From Bdellovibrionales bacterium (GTDB taxonomy: Bacteria; Bdellovibrionota; Bdellovibrionia; Bdellovibrionales; JAGQZY01), in contig CAXRHT010000001.1 in assembly GCA_964230645.1 (NCBI GenBank), positions 64,001 to 128,000 of the forward strand: a stretch of 64,000 nucleotides of DNA. The letters are read 5' to 3'. Below the pieces are notes generated by a model. That model did not search any database. It had not been told where the DNA came from and saw nothing but the letters and a program-made list of their open reading frames with translations. Position 1 is the first letter of the stretch. Each line of letters begins with the position of its first letter. Shown here in pieces: positions 10,155 through 19,586 of this stretch. The position numbers were made by a program, and so were the translations under genes.

Positions 10155-13100
10155 ATGAATAAAACCATCCAATTATTTATTTCTCTAATTGGTACGATGA
10201 CCATACTGGGATGCGGAAACGCCTTTGAAGCCGGAGACTTCGCTAGCCGTTCCTCCCAACTCCCCACTGTTCTCCGTAGCCAAACGGACCTCATTGATGT
10301 TTCCGAAAAATTGAGCGTTCAAAAAAGTGCCGTTGTTGACTCTCAAAGTATTTCAGCCTCCTCGACATTTTCCTCAGCAAACTCCAAATACAGTGAGTTT
10401 CAAAAGTTAGGAGTTAAAGCCGGGTCACGCTGGACAGCTCTTCTTGATAACGAATGCCTCAAGCTTTCTGCTTCCGAAGATTTTGCCACCAAGCTTTCCA
10501 AACAAGAGTTTGATCTCAATTCCCTCAAACAGAAAAAAGTCGCCTACTCTTTTGAACTCGATTCCGATCTCACTCTCCAAGAGCTTGCATTAAAACTCGA
10601 TGAAAGTGGTTGTGCTATTTATATGGAAAATGAACAAGACGAGGTGGAAGTTGTTTCTTACAATGATCCTCACTTCTCCGCACAAAAGCATTTAAATGAA
10701 ATTCAATCCGATTTTGCAGAGAAGATTCAACAAACCTACCAGGGCACTCAAGATGTGGTTGTGGCTATCATCGATACAGGCCTTGATCTCAACCATGAAG
10801 ACTTTGATAAAAACAAATTGTGGAGAGATGCGAGAGGCTTTAACGGCATTGACTTTCATAACAATGATTACAATCCTCAGGATGGTCACTCTCATGGGAC
10901 CTATGTGGCTTCTCTTCTTGCCGCACACACCAACAATAACAAAGGTGTTTCAGGGGTTGCCCCTTCCGGAATCCGCCTTATGCCTATTAAGGTTCTCGAC
11001 GACCGAGGTCGTGGCTATAGCACAAATGTGGTCAACGGCATTTATTACGCTATAGAAAACGGAGCTCACATCATAAACTTAAGTGTCGGTTTTCAAAAAG
11101 AAAGTAAAGTCATGCAAAAAGCCCTACAAGCGGCTGTCGATAGCGGTGTGATCGTTGTTTCTGCTGCTGGGAACTCCGGCCAACAACTTTCTAATAATTA
11201 CTTTATCACTCCTGCAGGTTACGCTTACTCTCAAAGAGGTCACATCTCGGTAGGCTCTACAAATGAAAGCGGAGCCTTGAGTGCTTTTAGTAACTTTGGT
11301 GCCGGTTGGGTTGAAATCGCCGCACCTGGTACAAATATTATGGGAGCTGTTCTCAATAATAAATATGAGACGAAGAGTGGGACCTCTGCCAGTGCCCCTC
11401 TTATAGCTGGAGCGGCGGCTCTTTTAGTGCACCAAAAAATAAACACCGGTCAAGGCTACACGGCCGGAGACATTGAGGACTTTCTTTTAGAAAACTCTAT
11501 TAAGGACGCAAAACTGACCTCTCAAATTTTAAAGGGTCATCGCCTTAATCTAAAAAATCTCCACGACGCATTGGTCGCGCAGGGCCCAATCACAGAGCCT
11601 GAATTAAACGAAGAGAATAACAATCCTCAAGACACCAATCCACCGCCACAGAATCCTCAAGGCAATCCGGAGGAAACTAAAATTTATCTCGGTGAAATCA
11701 ATAGTGTGAATTACGATGCCAATTTAAAAGCGGTTGTTATCAAAGGCTGGGGCTGCCGCTGGGGTACGTCTCAATCCCCAATTATTACACTTTTCTATGA
11801 CTTCAAATTAGATGAAGATTATATGGACTTCCCCACAAGAAGTCGACTCCCCAGCAGTGCAGCCGTTGAAGATCAATGTGGAGTGCAAGGAAACTTCAAT
11901 TTCGAGCATCACCTTCCTGTGGCCAAGGTGACTAAGTTAGCCATGGAAGGAATGGAAATTTCAGGCTCTGTCGGTTTTACCGAAATTGACGAAATCGGTA
12001 TCGGTAACTTTCAATTGACTCGCTCGCAAAAATTTGTGGTCCCAAAACTCCCCGACACAGTGGATGTCGAGGTGCCTGTGAGTGACGGGATGCCAGTGAT
12101 CAAGGGAAAAATTGAAAGTATCCGTTACCGCACTGATTTAACAAAAGTGGAAGTGTCAGGTTGGGCCTGTGAGGTGGGCGATCCGGGCAGTGCTAAAGTT
12201 TACCTGGCCGCCCTCAGACCTGTGGGTGGATACATCACAACCGATGTGGTCCAAGCCGATCAAACAAGCTCTGCTGAATCAAGACAGGTCTGCCAAACAA
12301 ATTCCAACCATGGCTTTAAGGCCTATATTGGTTTAAGCTCTGTGGATACTTTTGAGCTTGAGGGAGCCCAAGTGAGACTGCACGCCTACGGTCCTTTTCG
12401 AAGTGCGGGCTCTGAGCTTATCCCAAACCCCATGAACTTAAAAGTACCTGAGATCACTGACGCCCAAAGAGACACACCTCCGCCCACTCCGCAAACAGAA
12501 ATTAAAGGAGCCATTACTTCAATTGTTTATAATCCCAACACCAAAGCCGTCGATGTCATGGGCTGGGCTTGTGAAGTGGGTGTGGATGGACCAACAAAAG
12601 TGGAGCTTCTATTTCAACTTGATAGCGGCAGATACAGCAATAAGTACGCTGACACCACTTTAGAATCGAGCAACCAAGTTCTTGATGCCTGTGATTCCGG
12701 GGGCACTCATAACTTCAAGATCAGTCAAAATGCTTTTGTCAGTGATGCTCATACACTGCTCACCGATGGTAAACTGATCCTACAATTAGTGAACGGACCC
12801 AATGGCGAATTTAAAAACCCCATAAACCCAGACGCCTATAAAATTCCTGAAATTCCACAATTAAACAATCAAAACGAACTTATGGGTGCTGTCACAAGTG
12901 TCAACTATAACAACACTCGAAAAGAGCTGATCATTCAAGGCTGGCTGTGTGAAAAGGGTCTTGTCGGTTCTATTAAGTACCGTCTTGATGTTTTTCGACC
13001 AGAGCTTGGAAGCCGAGTGTCTTTGTCTCCTAAAACAGCACAGTCTCCGAGTTCCAACACGGTGAAAAATCAATGTGAAGCCAATGGACGTTTTAACTTC

Positions 13101-13244
13101 CAACACGTTCTCACCAGAGCCGATCTTGACAAATACCAGATTAAGCCAGGCTCTCATATCCGCATGTACTCTTACGCCAATAAAGAGGGTATGCCTAATA
13201 AGATGATCGGCAAAGACCAAAATTACCTGGTCCCTAACTACTAA
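10155..13244 (+). CDS. S8 (subtilisin-like) serine protease lipoprotein with four C-terminal GW(A)C repeats
   Basis: Lipobox ILGC; catalytic AIIDTG, HGTYVA and SGTSASAP; oxyanion AAGN; Pro/Asn linker then four ~130-aa repeats. Confidence 0.92.
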   Translation: MNKTIQLFISLIGTMTILGCGNAFEAGDFASRSSQLPTVLRSQTDLIDVSEKLSVQKSAVVDSQSISASSTFSSANSKYSEFQKLGVKAGSRWTALLDNECLKLSASEDFATKLSKQEFDLNSLKQKKVAYSFELDSDLTLQELALKLDESGCAIYMENEQDEVEVVSYNDPHFSAQKHLNEIQSDFAEKIQQTYQGTQDVVVAIIDTGLDLNHEDFDKNKLWRDARGFNGIDFHNNDYNPQDGHSHGTYVASLLAAHTNNNKGVSGVAPSGIRLMPIKVLDDRGRGYSTNVVNGIYYAIENGAHIINLSVGFQKESKVMQKALQAAVDSGVIVVSAAGNSGQQLSNNYFITPAGYAYSQRGHISVGSTNESGALSAFSNFGAGWVEIAAPGTNIMGAVLNNKYETKSGTSASAPLIAGAAALLVHQKINTGQGYTAGDIEDFLLENSIKDAKLTSQILKGHRLNLKNLHDALVAQGPITEPELNEENNNPQDTNPPPQNPQGNPEETKIYLGEINSVNYDANLKAVVIKGWGCRWGTSQSPIITLFYDFKLDEDYMDFPTRSRLPSSAAVEDQCGVQGNFNFEHHLPVAKVTKLAMEGMEISGSVGFTEIDEIGIGNFQLTRSQKFVVPKLPDTVDVEVPVSDGMPVIKGKIESIRYRTDLTKVEVSGWACEVGDPGSAKVYLAALRPVGGYITTDVVQADQTSSAESRQVCQTNSNHGFKAYIGLSSVDTFELEGAQVRLHAYGPFRSAGSELIPNPMNLKVPEITDAQRDTPPPTPQTEIKGAITSIVYNPNTKAVDVMGWACEVGVDGPTKVELLFQLDSGRYSNKYADTTLESSNQVLDACDSGGTHNFKISQNAFVSDAHTLLTDGKLILQLVNGPNGEFKNPINPDAYKIPEIPQLNNQNELMGAVTSVNYNNTRKELIIQGWLCEKGLVGSIKYRLDVFRPELGSRVSLSPKTAQSPSSNTVKNQCEANGRFNFQHVLTRADLDKYQIKPGSHIRMYSYANKEGMPNKMIGKDQNYLVPNY

Positions 13245-13253
13245 AATTTTATT

Positions 13254-13281
13254 GAGGAGTGCACTTCGTGCTCCTCTTTTT
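13254..13281 (+). terminator. Rho-independent terminator
   Basis: GAGGAGTGCACTTCGTGCTCCTC followed by TTTTT. Confidence 0.8.
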
Positions 13282-13375
13282 CATGCCTCAAATATAGATT
13301 TACTGCACAGGTGTTCCGATAATTACAGTGATTCTCAACTTGATACAGTTTAATTGCAGCTTGAGCCCAAAATCT

Positions 13376-13391
13376 CGGTATGAATATTGCT
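13376..13391 (+). promoter_or_regulatory. Candidate sigma54 promoter of the four-gene operon
   Basis: CGGTATGAATATTGCT (GG-N10-GC) 30 nt before the GTG start. Confidence 0.55.
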
Positions 13392-13421
13392 CCTTAATAA
13401 TACATCTACGGGAGGGATACT

Positions 13422-14036
13422 GTGGGAAAAAGATTTCTAATGTTATTATCTATATTAATGATGAGCTCAACGGGATTTATCTATCAAAATTGTGCACCTT
13501 TTGAGAGCCTTCAGAAAACAGAAAGTTTAGCTTCTAATGCAGTCAATGATTTTACCAGCTCTGAACTTTCATGTCGTTTCATTGGCGGGAATGCCCTGTC
13601 TACTGTTTTGACAAACACGCTCGGCCTGCCCGAGGGTGATGTGGCTATGCTTAATGAACAAGGGGAACCTTTAAAGAGCAATAACTGTAAAAGCTTTAAT
13701 CACCAAAATGGCGGACGGGACTGTCTTTATCTTTCCGAGTACTCCAGCGAATTGAGCACACAGAGCTGTAACACTTCGACTTTCCGTCTTGTTGCTCAAA
13801 TTTATACGAATGCTTGTGCTGAGAGTCTCAGTCAGGAAGAAAATGTTAACCGCTTGTTTCCGCAAGGCAGTGATAATTATACAACCATCCATCAGGCATT
13901 CACGGGGAGAACGCCACGAGGGGATGAAATTCAAATTCTTAAGGACCTATCCAAAGAGTTTGAAGTGGAGCAGGAAAAAATGACAGCCGTTTGTGCTGCC
14001 ATCGGTTCAAGCCTTGCATCAATTAATAGTTTCTAA
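13422..14036 (+). CDS. Lipoprotein with a C-terminal DUF1595/DUF1553-like helical motif
   Basis: Lipobox-like YQNC; several Cys; IHQAFTGRTPRGDE...AVCAAIGSS motif. Confidence 0.7.
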   Translation: MGKRFLMLLSILMMSSTGFIYQNCAPFESLQKTESLASNAVNDFTSSELSCRFIGGNALSTVLTNTLGLPEGDVAMLNEQGEPLKSNNCKSFNHQNGGRDCLYLSEYSSELSTQSCNTSTFRLVAQIYTNACAESLSQEENVNRLFPQGSDNYTTIHQAFTGRTPRGDEIQILKDLSKEFEVEQEKMTAVCAAIGSSLASINSF

Positions 14037-14056
14037 ATTTATCGGGAGAATGGGGA

Positions 14057-15454
14057 ATGAAGAACAAAAAGAAAACAACATTTGATCAACTCGACCTAGC
14101 TTTTGCACAATCTCGCAGAAACTTTGTCACTAAGTTAAGTTTTACTCTGGCCGCCGCTGGAGTCGCTAGTCAAACAAGACTGAGTCTTGTGGAAGAACTC
14201 GCACGCCAAATTATTCCACAAGCTCATGCCGACGATCTCGTGGCACCACAAAGATTAATCTTTATTGGAGTTCGCTCCGGAATTCCCATAATGCCTTTTG
14301 GAGCTCCGGATCTTTTCGCGCAGAGGGCAGAAGCCTTAACGCCGAATGTTCCATTTCAAGGCAGTCAATTCACTAAGGGAAAGAACGGACTTAATTTCAG
14401 TCCAGACTCTTTGCCTTTGAAAGCTCACGAAGACAATCTACTAATTACACAGGCCGTTCAAACCGAAGGTGGACACACTCGCATGTTTAACTTCTGGGAA
14501 GGGGGCCGAGGTCAGAACCAAGTCTCCCCTATCATCACACTTGCCAATCGAAATCCATCGGCCTCGGTGATTCCAGGGGTTCATTTTGCTCAAAACTCCA
14601 ATGGCAACCGTGTGGTTGATCACAGAACAGGAAGTCTTCCCGATTTACTGACCACACACAACTCCACTTTTAAAGACAACTTTAAAAAAGCCACCCTAGC
14701 TTTTGACGATGATGCGACCAAAAAGATTTTAGAGGCCTCTGTTAAATTGACTCGACGCCAGGCTTTGAGAATGCAAGCCTCTATTAAAAATCCGTTAAAT
14801 TATTCAGGAGATCAAAGTAAAGCCGCTGAGCTTCTTGGTTTCGATTATGTTCAAGCTCTCAACCCCACAGATATCAATAGTGCACTCAATGGCGGGGCCA
14901 ATGGTACCTATCGTAACTTTGGTGAGGCTTTAGGACATACCCTAAAAGCCATGACATATAATTTGATAAACTCATCAACCATTGAACTCTCTATTGGTGA
15001 CTGGCATGGCCGACGTGATATGACCTCAACAAGAGCTCACTACGCCGATGTCTCAGAAAAACTAGCGGCGGCCGTCGCCTATCTAAAAGCGACCCCCGAC
15101 TTGCAAGGTCCTAATGGCACCACCCTGTGGGACACCACCACAATTGTCATTGGAAGTGAATTTAACCGTAACGATAGTACCTTTGGTAGAGACAATGGTG
15201 ACGGTGGATCGCAAGGAACTTTGATCTTGTCGAAAAAGGTTCGTGGCGGATACTACGGAAAAGTCGATTACAACGGCAACGCCAATGCGGGAGGAAACCC
15301 AAGGATTCTCACTCACACAGGTGTGGATCGTACCTCGGGACAACTTCTCCCCAATGGTCAACGCAACTCAACCCGCCAGCTCTATCACACCATTAACAAT
15401 ATTATAGGTAACTCAAGCACAGCTTCTGAGGTCATCACAACTTATCTGGGGTAA
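14057..15454 (+). CDS. Tat-exported DUF1501-like protein
   Basis: SRRNFV twin-arginine motif and QAHA cleavage site; GDWH and DTTTIVIGSEFNR..GG..G motifs typical of the DUF1501/DUF1552 group. Confidence 0.75.
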   Translation: MKNKKKTTFDQLDLAFAQSRRNFVTKLSFTLAAAGVASQTRLSLVEELARQIIPQAHADDLVAPQRLIFIGVRSGIPIMPFGAPDLFAQRAEALTPNVPFQGSQFTKGKNGLNFSPDSLPLKAHEDNLLITQAVQTEGGHTRMFNFWEGGRGQNQVSPIITLANRNPSASVIPGVHFAQNSNGNRVVDHRTGSLPDLLTTHNSTFKDNFKKATLAFDDDATKKILEASVKLTRRQALRMQASIKNPLNYSGDQSKAAELLGFDYVQALNPTDINSALNGGANGTYRNFGEALGHTLKAMTYNLINSSTIELSIGDWHGRRDMTSTRAHYADVSEKLAAAVAYLKATPDLQGPNGTTLWDTTTIVIGSEFNRNDSTFGRDNGDGGSQGTLILSKKVRGGYYGKVDYNGNANAGGNPRILTHTGVDRTSGQLLPNGQRNSTRQLYHTINNIIGNSSTASEVITTYLG

Positions 15455-15455
15455 T

Positions 15456-16553
15456 ATGAAACATCGGGGAATTTCGGGGATCATTCTAACACTTCTTACT
15501 CTATTGGTGCTCCTTTACCAGGGGTGCCAAGGAGGAAACGTGAACTCTTCAAGCACACTCACCTCTTTTAATGAGCCAGGGCCAGAGGAACTTGAACCAA
15601 TCACTGAAGAACAGCGTCAGCAATCTTTTCGAAGAGTAAGCCTCATTTTTCTAAATCAAGCTCCGACTGCTGAACAATTGCAACAGGCTTCCAGTGAAAG
15701 TGGCTATAAACAGGCCATTGAGACCCTTGTCGACTCGCCCCAATTTGTCGCAAAGATGCGGAGTTATCACCAGGAATTTTTTGATATGAGTGGGCAAGAT
15801 GGCGACATCAACATGAATGAGCCTGCAAACCTTGCCTCTTTTCTTGTGAAAGAAAATATGGACTTCCGCCAAATTCTTAGGGCGGATTATTGCGTGAACA
15901 ATAACCTTGAAAAGGGCAACTGCTCAAGTTTTAATAACGATGCTGATCTGGCTAAGCAATTTGGAGCCGGGGTAGTGACCACACAAGCTTTCCTAAAAAA
16001 ATGGGAAGGACCTTTTAACTTTCGGCGAACAAGTCATATGCTTCAAGCCTTTGCTTGCCATGACTATCCCGATGAAAGTGACCCGGGTCTTTTTCCAGAG
16101 GAAGTTTCTGAAAACGTGCAGACTTTTGCGTGCACGGACTGTAATCCCAAATGCTACTCCTGCCACCGAACAATGAACTCTAGAGCTTCTCTTTTTTACG
16201 ACTTTGACACTTCGGGAGCATTTAACACAAACCCTGCTAATAATGTAGCTACCAAAAGAGATGACGGCAGTGTTTCCACTGTGGCTGATTTGCTCAACGA
16301 AGGTGTTAAACCACGCTTTCGGCAGCAAGAAGTGGCTAACTTAAAAGAGTACGCTTTTGAGCTCACTCGTGCTCCGAAGTTTCGCAAGTGTCTTGCCAAA
16401 CGTCTGACTTTGTTAGCACTCGGCGCTCAAAGTCACGAAGGTGAGCTCCCCACATTGCTTAAAGATATTGATCAAGGATTAATCAGACACCAGTTTCAAC
16501 TCAAAAGTTTCTACAAAGAACTACTAGGAAGTGATGAATATGTTATTCAATAA
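15456..16553 (+). CDS. DUF1549/DUF1588/DUF1585-like lipoprotein with CxxCH
   Basis: YQGC lipobox; FRRVSL...APT...LVDSPQF, GVVTTQAFL, CYSCH and FRKCLAKRL...LKSFYKELLGS motifs. Confidence 0.75.
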   Translation: MKHRGISGIILTLLTLLVLLYQGCQGGNVNSSSTLTSFNEPGPEELEPITEEQRQQSFRRVSLIFLNQAPTAEQLQQASSESGYKQAIETLVDSPQFVAKMRSYHQEFFDMSGQDGDINMNEPANLASFLVKENMDFRQILRADYCVNNNLEKGNCSSFNNDADLAKQFGAGVVTTQAFLKKWEGPFNFRRTSHMLQAFACHDYPDESDPGLFPEEVSENVQTFACTDCNPKCYSCHRTMNSRASLFYDFDTSGAFNTNPANNVATKRDDGSVSTVADLLNEGVKPRFRQQEVANLKEYAFELTRAPKFRKCLAKRLTLLALGAQSHEGELPTLLKDIDQGLIRHQFQLKSFYKELLGSDEYVIQ

Positions 16554-17196
16554 AAATTTCTTAACTTTGCTTTCAGTGATCACAATTTTGGCTTTTATGA
16601 ATTGCGCGCCTCTTGTAAGTACTCGCTACGATAGCGAACTGCTCCTTAGCTCTGCCGCTCAAGAGGTGGGACCTGATGGAGTTTTATTTTCAGCTCTTCC
16701 TCTGGGTCAACTTTCTATCGATCGGGAACTTCCTTTTTTCGCCGATGAGGTTTTCTTCACCGAGCCTGTTAAACAGGTGATCTGGGATCACAATCTCAAT
16801 GGTACGGCTTTCTGTGAGCAAAGTAGTGGTGAGACACCTTGGAGTGTTAAAATTCAATGCAGTGAACCAGGCACACTAAATTTATTTTTTATTGTCGAGT
16901 ACGAATCGGGAGTGGATGAGAGTTTCTTGGCCTCTGTAGACGTGCTTGCTGAACCCACTGACGAGCCCATTGACGAACCGGTAGAGCCCGTTGAGCCTAC
17001 ACCCCTTAATGGCGAGATGCTCTATTCGACAAGTTGTGCGGGTTGCCACGGTAGTGGTGCCAATTCCACCAAAAAAGGACGCTCCGCCGGTCAGATTCAA
17101 AATGCTATTACCAACAACGTGGGCGGAATGGGAATTCTTTCCACATTGTCGGCTGAAGAGGTTGAAGCGATCGCAGATTACCTGGATGCGCTTTAA
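16531..17196 (+). CDS. Lipoprotein with a C-terminal class I cytochrome c domain
   Basis: FMNC lipobox; EP-rich linker; G..LY...CAGCH, candidate distal Met (GGMG) and LSAEEVEAIADYL. Confidence 0.82.
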   Translation: MMNMLFNKNFLTLLSVITILAFMNCAPLVSTRYDSELLLSSAAQEVGPDGVLFSALPLGQLSIDRELPFFADEVFFTEPVKQVIWDHNLNGTAFCEQSSGETPWSVKIQCSEPGTLNLFFIVEYESGVDESFLASVDVLAEPTDEPIDEPVEPVEPTPLNGEMLYSTSCAGCHGSGANSTKKGRSAGQIQNAITNNVGGMGILSTLSAEEVEAIADYLDAL

Positions 17197-17556: not shown

Positions 17557-19329
17557 CTAGTCTCCTTTTCGTTCTAAAATTGCAAAATCCTGGTTGCTCC
17601 AAACAATACGGTAGCCATTTTTTTGCGCCCAATTATCTACAAATAAAACAGACTCCTGAGAGATTTGTGAGTGAGGAGGGATAATTTGTCCATTCCCCCA
17701 ATAATAGGACTGAGTATTGGTAATAGCTCGGAATAGAAAGCGTGGGAGTTTTTCCCCTTTTTTCTGACGAAAATAAAAAGCCATGGCTTTGACCCCTTGA
17801 ATGGTCGGCCATGGGTTTTCCAGATAACTTTTAGTGCCCGTGAGGTAGTAAAATAGAGGAACACTATTATAGGCCAAGGTGACGTCGCCGGGTTGAACGT
17901 ATTTTTGCGACTCTTTTAAGAATTCCCCAAAGCTTTTCACTCTTTGCTGGGAACTTTTTACTCCCTCTAGACTCTCCACATTGAATTCAGTATTGAGCTT
18001 TTCCCAATGAGGAATATCGCGGTAGGGACTTGAGGGAACCACCCAAAAACTCAACAAAACAAGAGGCATTAGAGATATAAAAAAACAAACGATGAGGCCA
18101 TTTCTACTTGGTGATTCTTTTTCATAATCTTGAAATATTTGTTTGAGCAAAACCACTTGAGCAGGAAGAGTAAACCACTGCCCCAGATGAATATTTAAAA
18201 AACCCACTCCCGATCCTGCAATACTAAAAAGACTCACTGTTATAAAAATCCACTGAATGTAGAAAATTTCAAGATAGGGAATCTCTTCGCCTCTTATTCT
18301 TTTAAGCACAACCGCTATTGTGGTGAAAATAGCTGTGAAGATAGAAAAGCTTCCAATGGCAGCACGGAGGTTATTTAAATTTCCATCAAAGATAAAAAAG
18401 CCCATCAAGGTTAAGACGACAAGAACGGCCATAGCATAAAAGGTCTTTTGTTTTCTTTGCTCAAAAAATCGAAAGCCCCAAAAACTGAGGCAAAGAAATG
18501 CCAGATAACCCAGCGCCCATGACCAGCGCCAAAACAGATGTTTGACATAAAGGTTTAATAAAAACTTTAACCCATGCTCTTGTTGAACGGGCACATCTTC
18601 TACCAATCCAAACATGACTTTCAAGCTATGAACATAATTGTCCCACAGCCCACTTAAGGCGGTAAGAATTAGAAAAAAAGCCATCCCTACTAGAGTCGCC
18701 CCCCAAAGAGAGACGAGTCTTTTAAAGCCCCGTGACTTTTTTAAAAGTAAGAGATCAAAAATAACTGGAACTAACGGGAAAATAAAAAAAGCAAATAGAG
18801 ATGGGAAGCGACTACCGAAAGTCATTCCAGCCAAAAGAGCATAACAAAAAAGCCACTGCCATTGGGGCTTATCTCGGTAAGTCAAAAAACAAAGTCCACC
18901 AAGACTTAGAAAAAAAGCACCAAGATTGGTGTAATAAAGAATTTCTAGGCGTCCACCCACAAGAATGAGCCCAACAAGTAAGGTCGCAATAGTGGCTTGA
19001 TTTGTAGTGAGCCATTTTTTTAAAAAGAGCTTAACAAAATAGGAAAAACCAACAACAAGAAAACACCAACCAAGCCCTGCCCCTAAAAGCCCCAAGGGGG
19101 AAACGAGACTAAGCCATAGTCCCCCTAAAAAGTCAGAGAACCAAAGGGCGGTGGATTGAGACTCTCCAAGAAGAGTCAATTGCTGTTGATAGAGATTAAA
19201 ACCCGAATCGGTAACATCGAGACCCCGTCTTGCTAGTAAGAAACTATAGAGGAAAAGAATTAGGTAGCACAGGCCTGAAAGAAGTCCTGAGGGAAGTGAC
19301 CTTAATTTAGTTAGAGTTTTTTCTGACAT
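17557..19329 (-). CDS. Polytopic membrane protein, GT-C (ArnT/PMT-like) glycosyltransferase candidate
   Basis: About 13 hydrophobic segments, GLDVTDSGF loop after TM1 and a soluble C-terminal domain (PLFYYLT). Start set at ATG 19329. Confidence 0.65.
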   Translation of the reverse strand: MSEKTLTKLRSLPSGLLSGLCYLILFLYSFLLARRGLDVTDSGFNLYQQQLTLLGESQSTALWFSDFLGGLWLSLVSPLGLLGAGLGWCFLVVGFSYFVKLFLKKWLTTNQATIATLLVGLILVGGRLEILYYTNLGAFFLSLGGLCFLTYRDKPQWQWLFCYALLAGMTFGSRFPSLFAFFIFPLVPVIFDLLLLKKSRGFKRLVSLWGATLVGMAFFLILTALSGLWDNYVHSLKVMFGLVEDVPVQQEHGLKFLLNLYVKHLFWRWSWALGYLAFLCLSFWGFRFFEQRKQKTFYAMAVLVVLTLMGFFIFDGNLNNLRAAIGSFSIFTAIFTTIAVVLKRIRGEEIPYLEIFYIQWIFITVSLFSIAGSGVGFLNIHLGQWFTLPAQVVLLKQIFQDYEKESPSRNGLIVCFFISLMPLVLLSFWVVPSSPYRDIPHWEKLNTEFNVESLEGVKSSQQRVKSFGEFLKESQKYVQPGDVTLAYNSVPLFYYLTGTKSYLENPWPTIQGVKAMAFYFRQKKGEKLPRFLFRAITNTQSYYWGNGQIIPPHSQISQESVLFVDNWAQKNGYRIVWSNQDFAILERKGD

Positions 19330-19586
19330 TCCTTGTAGGCGATTTTTTTCTCTTTGTAGCAATTCTTTCGATCACCATCACACTGATATCGCCATCCCCG
19401 CTTTATCTTACACTGCTCAAGAGAAGATTGGGATGGAACATTGGCAATTTTACGACCAGTCTCTTTGGGAAACTCGATCTTAGCTTCCACTTTCTTAGTC
19501 CTTGGTCCTGCAAACAGAGCGGGTACACTCAAACAGGCAAAAGCCAAACAAAATTGCAAAAAACTCATTCCAAAAGATTTGTTCAT
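19311..19586 (-). CDS. Hypothetical small basic secreted protein
   Basis: Signal peptide, RKIA motif and 4 Cys in the mature part. Confidence 0.6.
   Translation of the reverse strand: MNKSFGMSFLQFCLAFACLSVPALFAGPRTKKVEAKIEFPKETGRKIANVPSQSSLEQCKIKRGWRYQCDGDRKNCYKEKKIAYKECQKKL

Follow-up and report, generated by a model that had tools for sequence, protein, structure and literature searches.

Pairs of genes that encode a DUF1501 or DUF1552 protein beside a protein built from PSCyt and PSD domains are abundant, yet have gone unexplained since at least 2012 (PMC3542564, PMC5615132). The modules that combine DUF1501 with PSCyt1, PSCyt2 and PSD1 were described as membrane-targeted, probably redox-related, of no known function, and present in many copies per genome, and a role in electron transport was proposed for them (Kamneva et al. 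2012, PMC3542564). DUF1501 is the reported companion of PSCyt2, and DUF1552 that of PSCyt3 (He et al. 2017, PMC5615132, 10.1101/150078), and the canonical PSCyt3 module has the domain order (cytochrome c)-PSD3-PSD5-PSD4-PSCyt3-PSD2 (DUF1587/1595/1592/1588/1585) and adjoins DUF1552 (PMC5615132, 10.1101/150078). Here we analyze a four-gene operon from a Bdellovibrionales bacterium (assembly GCA_964230645.1), located within a 64,000-nucleotide stretch of contig CAXRHT010000001.1 (positions 64,001 to 128,000 of the forward strand, hereafter the window). The operon encodes, in order, a lipoprotein (gene 1), a protein of the twin-arginine translocation (Tat) type (gene 2), a monohaem lipoprotein (gene 3) and a cytochrome c lipoprotein (gene 4). 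Judged by profile comparison and gene pairing, it belongs to the broad class of PSCyt/PSD modules with a Tat partner, genes 1 to 3 meeting no single Pfam cut-off. We propose, with about an even chance of being right, that the four genes are a split PSCyt/PSD and DUF1501/DUF1552 module whose products would form one membrane-anchored, sigma54-controlled envelope oxidoreductase, with the substrate held at the gene-2 protein and oxidised with the gene-3 haem. Distinctive of this locus are the three-way split of the haem protein, the crossed pairing of a PSCyt3-type core with a DUF1501-type partner, a PgcA-type cytochrome shuttle, and a conserved sigma54 site.

The link to PSCyt3 modules runs through gene 3. 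A gene-3 profile aligned with canonical PSD4-PSCyt3-PSD2 cores over 296 columns (probability 99.3%, E 7.8e-21), and the CxxCH motif that had been pointed out in this protein (residues 233-237) proved invariant in 73/73 homologues, so that at the level of sequence profiles gene 3 is shown to be a PSD4-PSCyt3-PSD2 haem core. At E<=0.01, PSCyt3 was matched by 41/73 gene-3 homologues and PSD2 by 21/73, and the homologues P0018 and P0022 pass the PSD2 cut-off. As in PSCyt3-type modules, the core carries one CxxCH together with a conserved Arg and two conserved Cys, and a Tat partner adjoins it; the Arg (R191) is kept in 67/69 gene-3 rows and 21/22 canonical cores, and both Cys (C201 and C312) in all gene-3 rows and canonical cores examined. 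Unlike those modules, this locus shows a split into three lipoproteins, scores below the Pfam cut-offs, a further invariant Cys pair (C146/C156, among six invariant Cys in gene 3) and a partner nearer to DUF1501 than to DUF1552.

Apart from the His of CxxCH, no conserved His or Met was found along gene 3 (73 rows), nor, in 22 canonical cores, at up to 130 residues from the motif. Given the lack of a conserved His or Met as sixth ligand, and the complete or nearly complete invariance of the Arg and the two Cys, the gene-3 haem is likely to be open, Cys-ligated, or ligated by a partner protein. The absence of a conserved His or Met of its own for this position in turn points to a catalytic haem and not a plain carrier. 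Covariation of the Cys residues, as a guide to disulfide versus haem ligand, was uninformative, C201 and C312 both being invariant in 22/22 canonical cores. We also considered a second haem site at the CTDC sequence ahead of the CYSCH motif, to which the original prediction had drawn attention, and rejected it; matching extra Cys occur in just 18/73 homologues and are not accompanied by a His. The gene-3 model was confident (predicted local distance difference test score, pLDDT, 81). Searches of the PDB turned up no structure of the haem core: Foldseek gave no match at E<=0.001, the best VIA Z was 4.6 and involved small helical pieces, and the gene-3 sequence found nothing below E 0.1. The missing match does not show a new fold.

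Genes 4 and 1 appear to supply what precedes this core in the canonical protein. That the operon has a class I cytochrome c of its own was borne out: gene 4 matched Pfam Cytochrome_CBB3 (E 9e-10), and the best PDB matches of its short helical cytochrome domain were 8QJ6 (E 2e-12) and 8QJG (E 2e-11), the next lying at 5e-3. These two entries are domains I and II of Geobacter sulfurreducens PgcA (PMC11520253). The gene-4 CxxCH (residues 169-173) lies close to the start of the domain and is present in 11/13 rows, the other two rows representing one locus without the cytochrome domain, and the distal Met200 is kept in 11/11 rows having the domain. Matches to PKD in gene 4 were weak (3/11 rows, best E 0.006). 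Elsewhere in this genome a gene-4-type cytochrome (E 8e-11, residues 44-107) heads a 633-aa lipoprotein (C3:547216-549117; L172:5217-7118, - strand), in which it is followed by a Pro-rich linker and PSD3-PSD5-PSD4-PSCyt3-PSD2, with a DUF1552 gene coming next.

Gene 1 had no match in Pfam. Its profile matched a lipoprotein family that adjoins distant gene-3 homologues (probability 96.7%, E 3.7e-10), and three loci, L043 of this genome together with L064 and L072, carry this sister family fused in frame to a gene-3 homologue; fusion of a gene-1-type domain to the haem core elsewhere is thus shown in the translated sequences. The sister family also gave a weak match to the PSD5 region (probability 29%, E 5.8e-4), three control profile pairs scoring 0.1-0.3%, and gene 1 is likely a helical domain that is the counterpart of PSD3/PSD5 in the canonical fused protein. 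With gene-4-type and gene-1-type domains both fused to cores elsewhere, genes 4, 1 and 3 correspond, as read from their domains, to a single canonical fused protein in three pieces. A frameshift or assembly artefact behind the split was discarded as an explanation, as every piece carries a signal peptide of its own and 9 other loci show the same split. The products of genes 1 and 3 would re-associate and so rebuild the fused protein.

The partner, gene 2, carries the twin-arginine signal ascribed to it, with R20-R21 invariant in 113/113 gene-2 homologues and followed by an A-x-A site; the TIGR01409 Tat signal model scored 13 bits, short of its cut-off (16.7). The protein has zero Cys, and the description of the operon as an all-lipoprotein set fails on this point. 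Its DUF1501-like character stood in the form of a remote relationship. The gene-2 profile matched DUF1501 at 99.5% as against 45% for DUF1552 (C-terminal part only), a comparison biased towards a match by the collection of its DUF1501 rows with the gene-2 profile itself, and DUF1501 was present in 28/30 Atlas matches of gene 2. The DUF1501 cut-off was passed by 3/32 gene-2 profile matches tested, all in the weak tail of 99 matches, and by the gene-2 paralogue at L043 in the same genome (34 bits). Against Pfam DUF1552 (PF07586), gene 2 had no match at E<=1, and D-W-H replaces the HxxSHH motif. In alignment, Gly383 of gene 2 stands opposite the His in the D-H motif of DUF1501. The conserved residues of gene 2 are R73, H140, D315-x-H317, E368-x-x-R371 and D382; despite a mean identity of 19%, R73, H140, D315-x-H317, E/D368 and R371 are kept in 109-113/113 rows, with H140 invariant in all 113/113. 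The operon resembles the DUF1501 modules with PSCyt1, PSCyt2 and PSD1 of Planctomycetes, Verrucomicrobia and Lentisphaerae in pairing a CxxCH protein with a Tat-type DUF1501-like neighbor and in the many copies per genome (PMC3542564), and differs from them in its PSCyt3/PSD2-like haem partner and Bdellovibrionales host.

Hydrolases of the alkaline phosphatase superfamily (sulfatases, phosphatases, LtaS) share a Ser, Thr or formylglycine nucleophile, an Asp on the first strand, and metal ligands in an S-D-H-G motif. Gene 2 probably has the fold of this superfamily, to judge from weak fold matches of a low-confidence model. In that model, H140 opens a helix (H140-147) behind a strand (E128-131), and a Gly stands at +9/+10 of H140 in 88/113 rows; among sulfatase-family rows, a Gly or Ser stands at +10 of the nucleophile in 14/17 and the nucleophile is Thr or Ser in 17/17. 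H140 thus likely sits at the nucleophile position of the superfamily, in a putative register. Profile alignment of gene 2 to 17 sulfatase-family proteins was not significant at this N-terminal site; against the sulfatase-family profile, gene 2 scored E 0.003 at 10% probability, with E368 aligned to the Asp of S-D-H-G and F/G in place of the following His in 109/113 rows. The first-strand Asp of alkaline-phosphatase-type hydrolases is missing. A first-strand Glu is kept in 78/113 family rows and is Phe in this gene 2, implying that the metal set varies even inside the gene-2 family.

Gene 2 could instead be a phosphate or sulfate ester hydrolase or transferase, perhaps working through a phospho-His at H140, with the haem proteins as a scaffold or as a redox switch that activates or regulates it. 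Matches from the alkaline phosphatase superfamily lead a weak fold search, the D-x-H, E/D and two Arg would suit an anion-binding metal site, and sulfatase genes adjoin PSCyt genes in Verrucomicrobia (PMC5615132). The hydrolase signature nevertheless fails in gene 2: the inferred nucleophile position holds His in 113/113 rows and no Ser, Thr or Cys, the protein has no Cys, and neither the first-strand Asp nor the S-D-H-G His is in place. The second, tethered His/Met cytochrome, moreover, points to net electron flow, and we regard an esterase of this kind as unlikely. Given the conserved set of H140, D315, H317, E368 and Arg together with the replacement of the S-D-H-G His by F/G, gene 2 looks like an anion-binding metal site and not a standard hydrolase.

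In the oxidoreductase that we favor, the Tat-exported gene-2 protein would dock on the protein formed by genes 1 and 3, presenting a His/carboxylate metal site (H140, D315, H317, E368) flanked by R73 and R371. It would bind a substrate, probably anionic or glycan-derived, which would be oxidised at or near a catalytic gene-3 haem; the gene-4 cytochrome would then swing on its Pro/Glu tether and carry the electrons off, probably to the respiratory chain. The genome carries a cytochrome c assembly gene, two haem-copper oxidase subunit I (COX1)-family genes and tatC. We consider an envelope oxidoreductase the simplest reading because a gene-3 haem with no conserved His or Met as sixth ligand is combined with a tethered His/Met cytochrome.

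Electron flow might also be the reverse: the membrane would feed gene 4 and then gene 3, which would pass the electrons on to an external acceptor or to some other enzyme. Delivery of this kind has been proposed for Cbp2D and PgcA, and gene 2 would then be a chaperone, maturase or docking subunit. PgcA domains, of which I and II are the best structural relatives of gene 4, work by tethered diffusion, and the potentials of the three domains lie between -48 and -106 mV (PMC11520253). Gene 4 resembles domains I and II in its His/Met ligands, lipoprotein anchor and Pro-rich tether. PgcA, by contrast, has three haem domains, (PT)n linkers and a bis-His mineral-reducing domain III, whereas gene 4 has one CxxCH and a PKD-like spacer domain, Thr180 takes the place of the acidic residue found seven places after the PgcA haem His, and the mineral-binding domain III (8QK0) was not among its 29 PDB matches. 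Cellvibrio Cbp2D, whose C-terminus consists of an X183 cytochrome, DUF1587 and X132, is required for growth on cellulose (PMC8981238, PMC10916295), and among relatives built this way Cbp2D-type proteins alone have a phenotype on record in the literature found. Cellvibrio japonicus Cbp2D and Teredinibacter TERTU_2913/3803 (PMC8981238, PMC10916295, PMC12542752) share with the operon a small monohaem cytochrome that a flexible linker connects to a CxxCH domain headed by DUF1587, but they are single secreted chains, most of them with carbohydrate-binding modules; judging by the DUF1587 annotation, their X132 would correspond to the PSD/PSCyt3 core. CjX183 is able to reduce lytic polysaccharide monooxygenases (LPMOs; PMC8981238), whereas T. 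turnerae X183 domains failed to drive their LPMO (PMC10916295). The invariant His/Asp/Glu/Arg cluster of gene 2 would also better suit an active site than a helper protein, and we find an electron-delivery chain quite unlikely.

The operon architecture is conserved within Bdellovibrionales, in keeping with the synteny that had been anticipated. A scan of 86 locus records (many of them duplicates or fragments) plus 4 more found the order 1-2-3-4 repeated in 9 other distinct loci: L053 (=L034), L054 (=L183), L055, L056, L057 (=L091), L058, L061 (=L092), L094 and L180. Gene 1 is truncated by the contig end in L054, and gene 4 lacks the cytochrome domain in L061. All titled loci with this order are from Bdellovibrionales, Bdellovibrionaceae or Pseudobdellovibrionaceae, and the neighboring genes vary among the 6 related loci whose flanks were displayed. 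More distant loci, largely from Myxococcota, combine gene-2 and gene-3 homologues with a lipoprotein of ~200 aa in other orders. Across 301 genomes of the phylum, the gene-3 profile found some match in 68 and a match at E<1e-90 in 6, our genome included; the module is common across the phylum, and the four-gene version is patchy. The identities of genes 2 and 3 are correlated over 46 loci (rho 0.90), a value that reflects linkage and kinship and is therefore not usable as evidence of binding. We also observed a 216-238-aa protein with a single CxxCH and no Pfam match that replaces gene 4 beside a gene-3 homologue (L060:5312-5962, =L035; L037:1314-2030).

The sigma54-type promoter site originally predicted was upheld by a more stringent form of the motif. 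The bare GG-N10-GC pattern is weak: each strand of this genome has 0.49 occurrences per 200 bp, compared with 0.044 per 200 bp for the stricter GG-N8-TTGC. The latter, with the exact spacing of -24 GG and -12 TTGC, lies 5' of the first gene in 9/11 loci (8/10 examined first plus one further locus); the two loci without it are L061, where a near match is present, and L038. Genome-wide there are 32 sites with the strict consensus, and 26 of these fall outside long open reading frames (ORFs), a space that makes up 17% of the genome, and an rpoN gene is present. Together, these patterns suggest that the four-gene operon is likely under sigma54 control. The genes behind strict sites are mostly exported or lipoprotein-like, making them a candidate RpoN regulon of secreted lipoproteins; two of them look flagellar.

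The locus is not unique; it is one of 14 such modules in this genome. Over 3.8 Mb, the gene-3 profile found 14 cores at E<=3e-13 (C1:79456, C1:579541, C1:600842, C2:201265, C2:216579, C2:319094, C2:365922, C2:409217, C2:427717, C2:1343147, C2:1455659, C2:1625812, C3:231941 and C3:547216); a fifteenth match (E 0.007) was left out of the count. For 13/14 of them the neighbor is a Tat protein on the same strand, and of these partners 8 pass the DUF1552 cut-off, 3 pass that of DUF1501, and 2 (the present gene 2 and C2:218870) pass neither. A sigma54-like site lies close to the start of about 4/14 modules. The core lacking a same-strand partner (C2:201265-204787) is back to back with an opposite-strand 521-aa gene that weakly matches the gene-2 profile (E 0.015). 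Clustering was also seen in another genome, where at least 4 PSCyt/Tat modules lie within 16 kb (L040/L062, G049:C27).

Several observations weigh against the proposed oxidoreductase or its assignment to this class. Gene 3 matched PSCyt2, PSD2, PSCyt3 and PSD4, all below threshold (PSCyt3, PF07627, 20.3 bits against 27; PSD2, PF07624, 19.8 against 25.8; PSD4, PF07631, 13.4 against 23.3), gene 2 matched DUF1501 (PF07394) at 13 bits and E 0.057, short of the gathering cut-off of 27, and gene 1's own profile scored 0.4% against the PSD5 region. The gene-2 model, built on an alignment of 9 rows, has a low pLDDT of 46, and the sulfatases and LtaS that head its Foldseek results are not significant (best E 0.18). 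The Pfam search found no carbohydrate-binding module in the operon, and in the literature found, no activity is reported for any module member. Close relatives of gene 3 occur in just 6/301 genomes, which argues that this version is no core predation gene. Finally, most distant loci have no gene-4 homologue, and with the loss of the domain in L061 this suggests that gene 4 is partly dispensable.

This last point bears on whether the four proteins act together at all. They may be co-regulated without joining in a complex, and gene 4 especially would be an independent add-on cytochrome, consistent with its truncation in L061 and with the other cytochromes, or none, at most distant loci. Against such independence, other genes, two of them in this genome, join domains of the gene-1 and gene-4 types to the haem core, and the four genes are spaced at 20, 1 and -23 nt; we consider it very unlikely. 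As to what the proposed oxidoreductase would act upon, PSCyt genes often carry carbohydrate-binding modules (PMC5615132), and by analogy with these and with the cellulose phenotype of Cbp2D, the substrate might, with low confidence, be prey or biofilm glycans or their fragments. The tie of the operon to predation consists of lineage and promoter type only.

The features of the locus are collected in Table 1. The picture of four tightly packed genes behind a terminator was confirmed, with ORFs and hairpin found in place. The last overlap, 23 nt as annotated, shrinks to 14-20 nt if gene 4 starts at ATG 16534 or 16540. A scan of the window for terminator-like hairpins gave 15 sites versus 8.0 +/- 3.2 in shuffles. 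Upstream (window 10155-13244) lies a gene for a 1029-aa lipoprotein-like subtilase (Peptidase_S8, E 1.5e-49), whose C-terminal part consists of four repeats, each with a GW-x-C motif and without a Pfam match. Downstream (17557-19362, - strand) is a 601-aa multi-pass membrane protein that was not seen beside related loci and that, by eye, we presume to resemble a GT-C/ArnT-type glycosyltransferase. Both were rejected as operon members on account of their absence from the flanks of 6 relatives, and the peptidase also on account of the terminator-like hairpin in between.

Table 1. Positions of the operon genes and associated features in the window
Feature	Position	Strand	Description
Terminator-like hairpin	13254..13286 (hairpin 13254-13276)	+	Resembles an intrinsic terminator, at end of upstream S8 peptidase gene; 9 pairs, 5 G-C, T-run
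sigma54 (-24/-12)-type promoter site	13376-13391	+	GG-N8-TTGC, kept in 9/11 loci
Gene 1	13422-14036	+	ORF, 204 aa, lipoprotein
Gene 2	14057-15454	+	ORF, 465 aa, Tat-type protein
Codon of gene 2 His140	14474..14476	+	Invariant; likely the family's usual Ser/Thr/formylglycine nucleophile position, register inferred
Gene 3	15456-16553	+	ORF, 365 aa, monohaem lipoprotein (predicted from sequence), PSD4-PSCyt3-PSD2 type
CxxCH haem-binding motif, gene 3 C233-H237	16152..16166	+	73/73 homologues
Gene 4	16531-17196	+	ORF, 221 aa, lipoprotein with PKD/Ig-like domain, Pro/Glu linker and PgcA-like His/Met monohaem cytochrome c
CxxCH haem-binding motif, gene 4 C169-H173	17035..17049	+	ORF translation and alignment rows

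The lipoboxes of the three lipoproteins had been called unusual, a description that does not hold for this genome. The (Y/F)x(N/G)C box occurs at residues 11-50 of 44/2448 ORFs (>=200 aa), versus 1 and 0 in two control windows. The lipobox-like motif enriched at the N-termini of this genome is (Y/F)(Q/N/M)(N/G)C, of which no description was found in the Bdellovibrio literature searched.

In agreement with the original prediction, no established function for these genes turned up: within the literature searched on DUF1501, DUF1552 and PSCyt, we found neither a function for the module nor a description of this operon. In a 3.8-Mb relative of predatory Bdellovibrionales, a system usually associated with Planctomycetes and Verrucomicrobia has expanded to 14 loci, and the present operon shows a third pairing, that of a PSCyt3-type core with a DUF1501-type partner. 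The operon by itself does not reveal the chemistry. It does offer the same module parts as four small separate chains of 204-465 aa, and it names residues for mutation (H140, H317, E368, R73 and R371 of gene 2; R191, C201 and C312 of gene 3; M200 of gene 4); for full-length Cbp2D-type proteins, expression failed (PMC8981238, PMC10916295). A bolder possibility, to which we assign a slim chance, is that the module represents an enzyme class not yet described, with an alkaline-phosphatase fold converted into the substrate-binding half of a haem oxidoreductase. H140, at the nucleophile position, or H317 would cross the interface to ligate or serve the partner haem, the PgcA-type cytochrome would drain the electrons, and the 14 paralogues would be a sigma54-linked toolkit for oxidising different prey-envelope polymers. 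If this were true, expression should be easiest for the small split version, which would give access to the function of the whole PSCyt/DUF1501/DUF1552 system.

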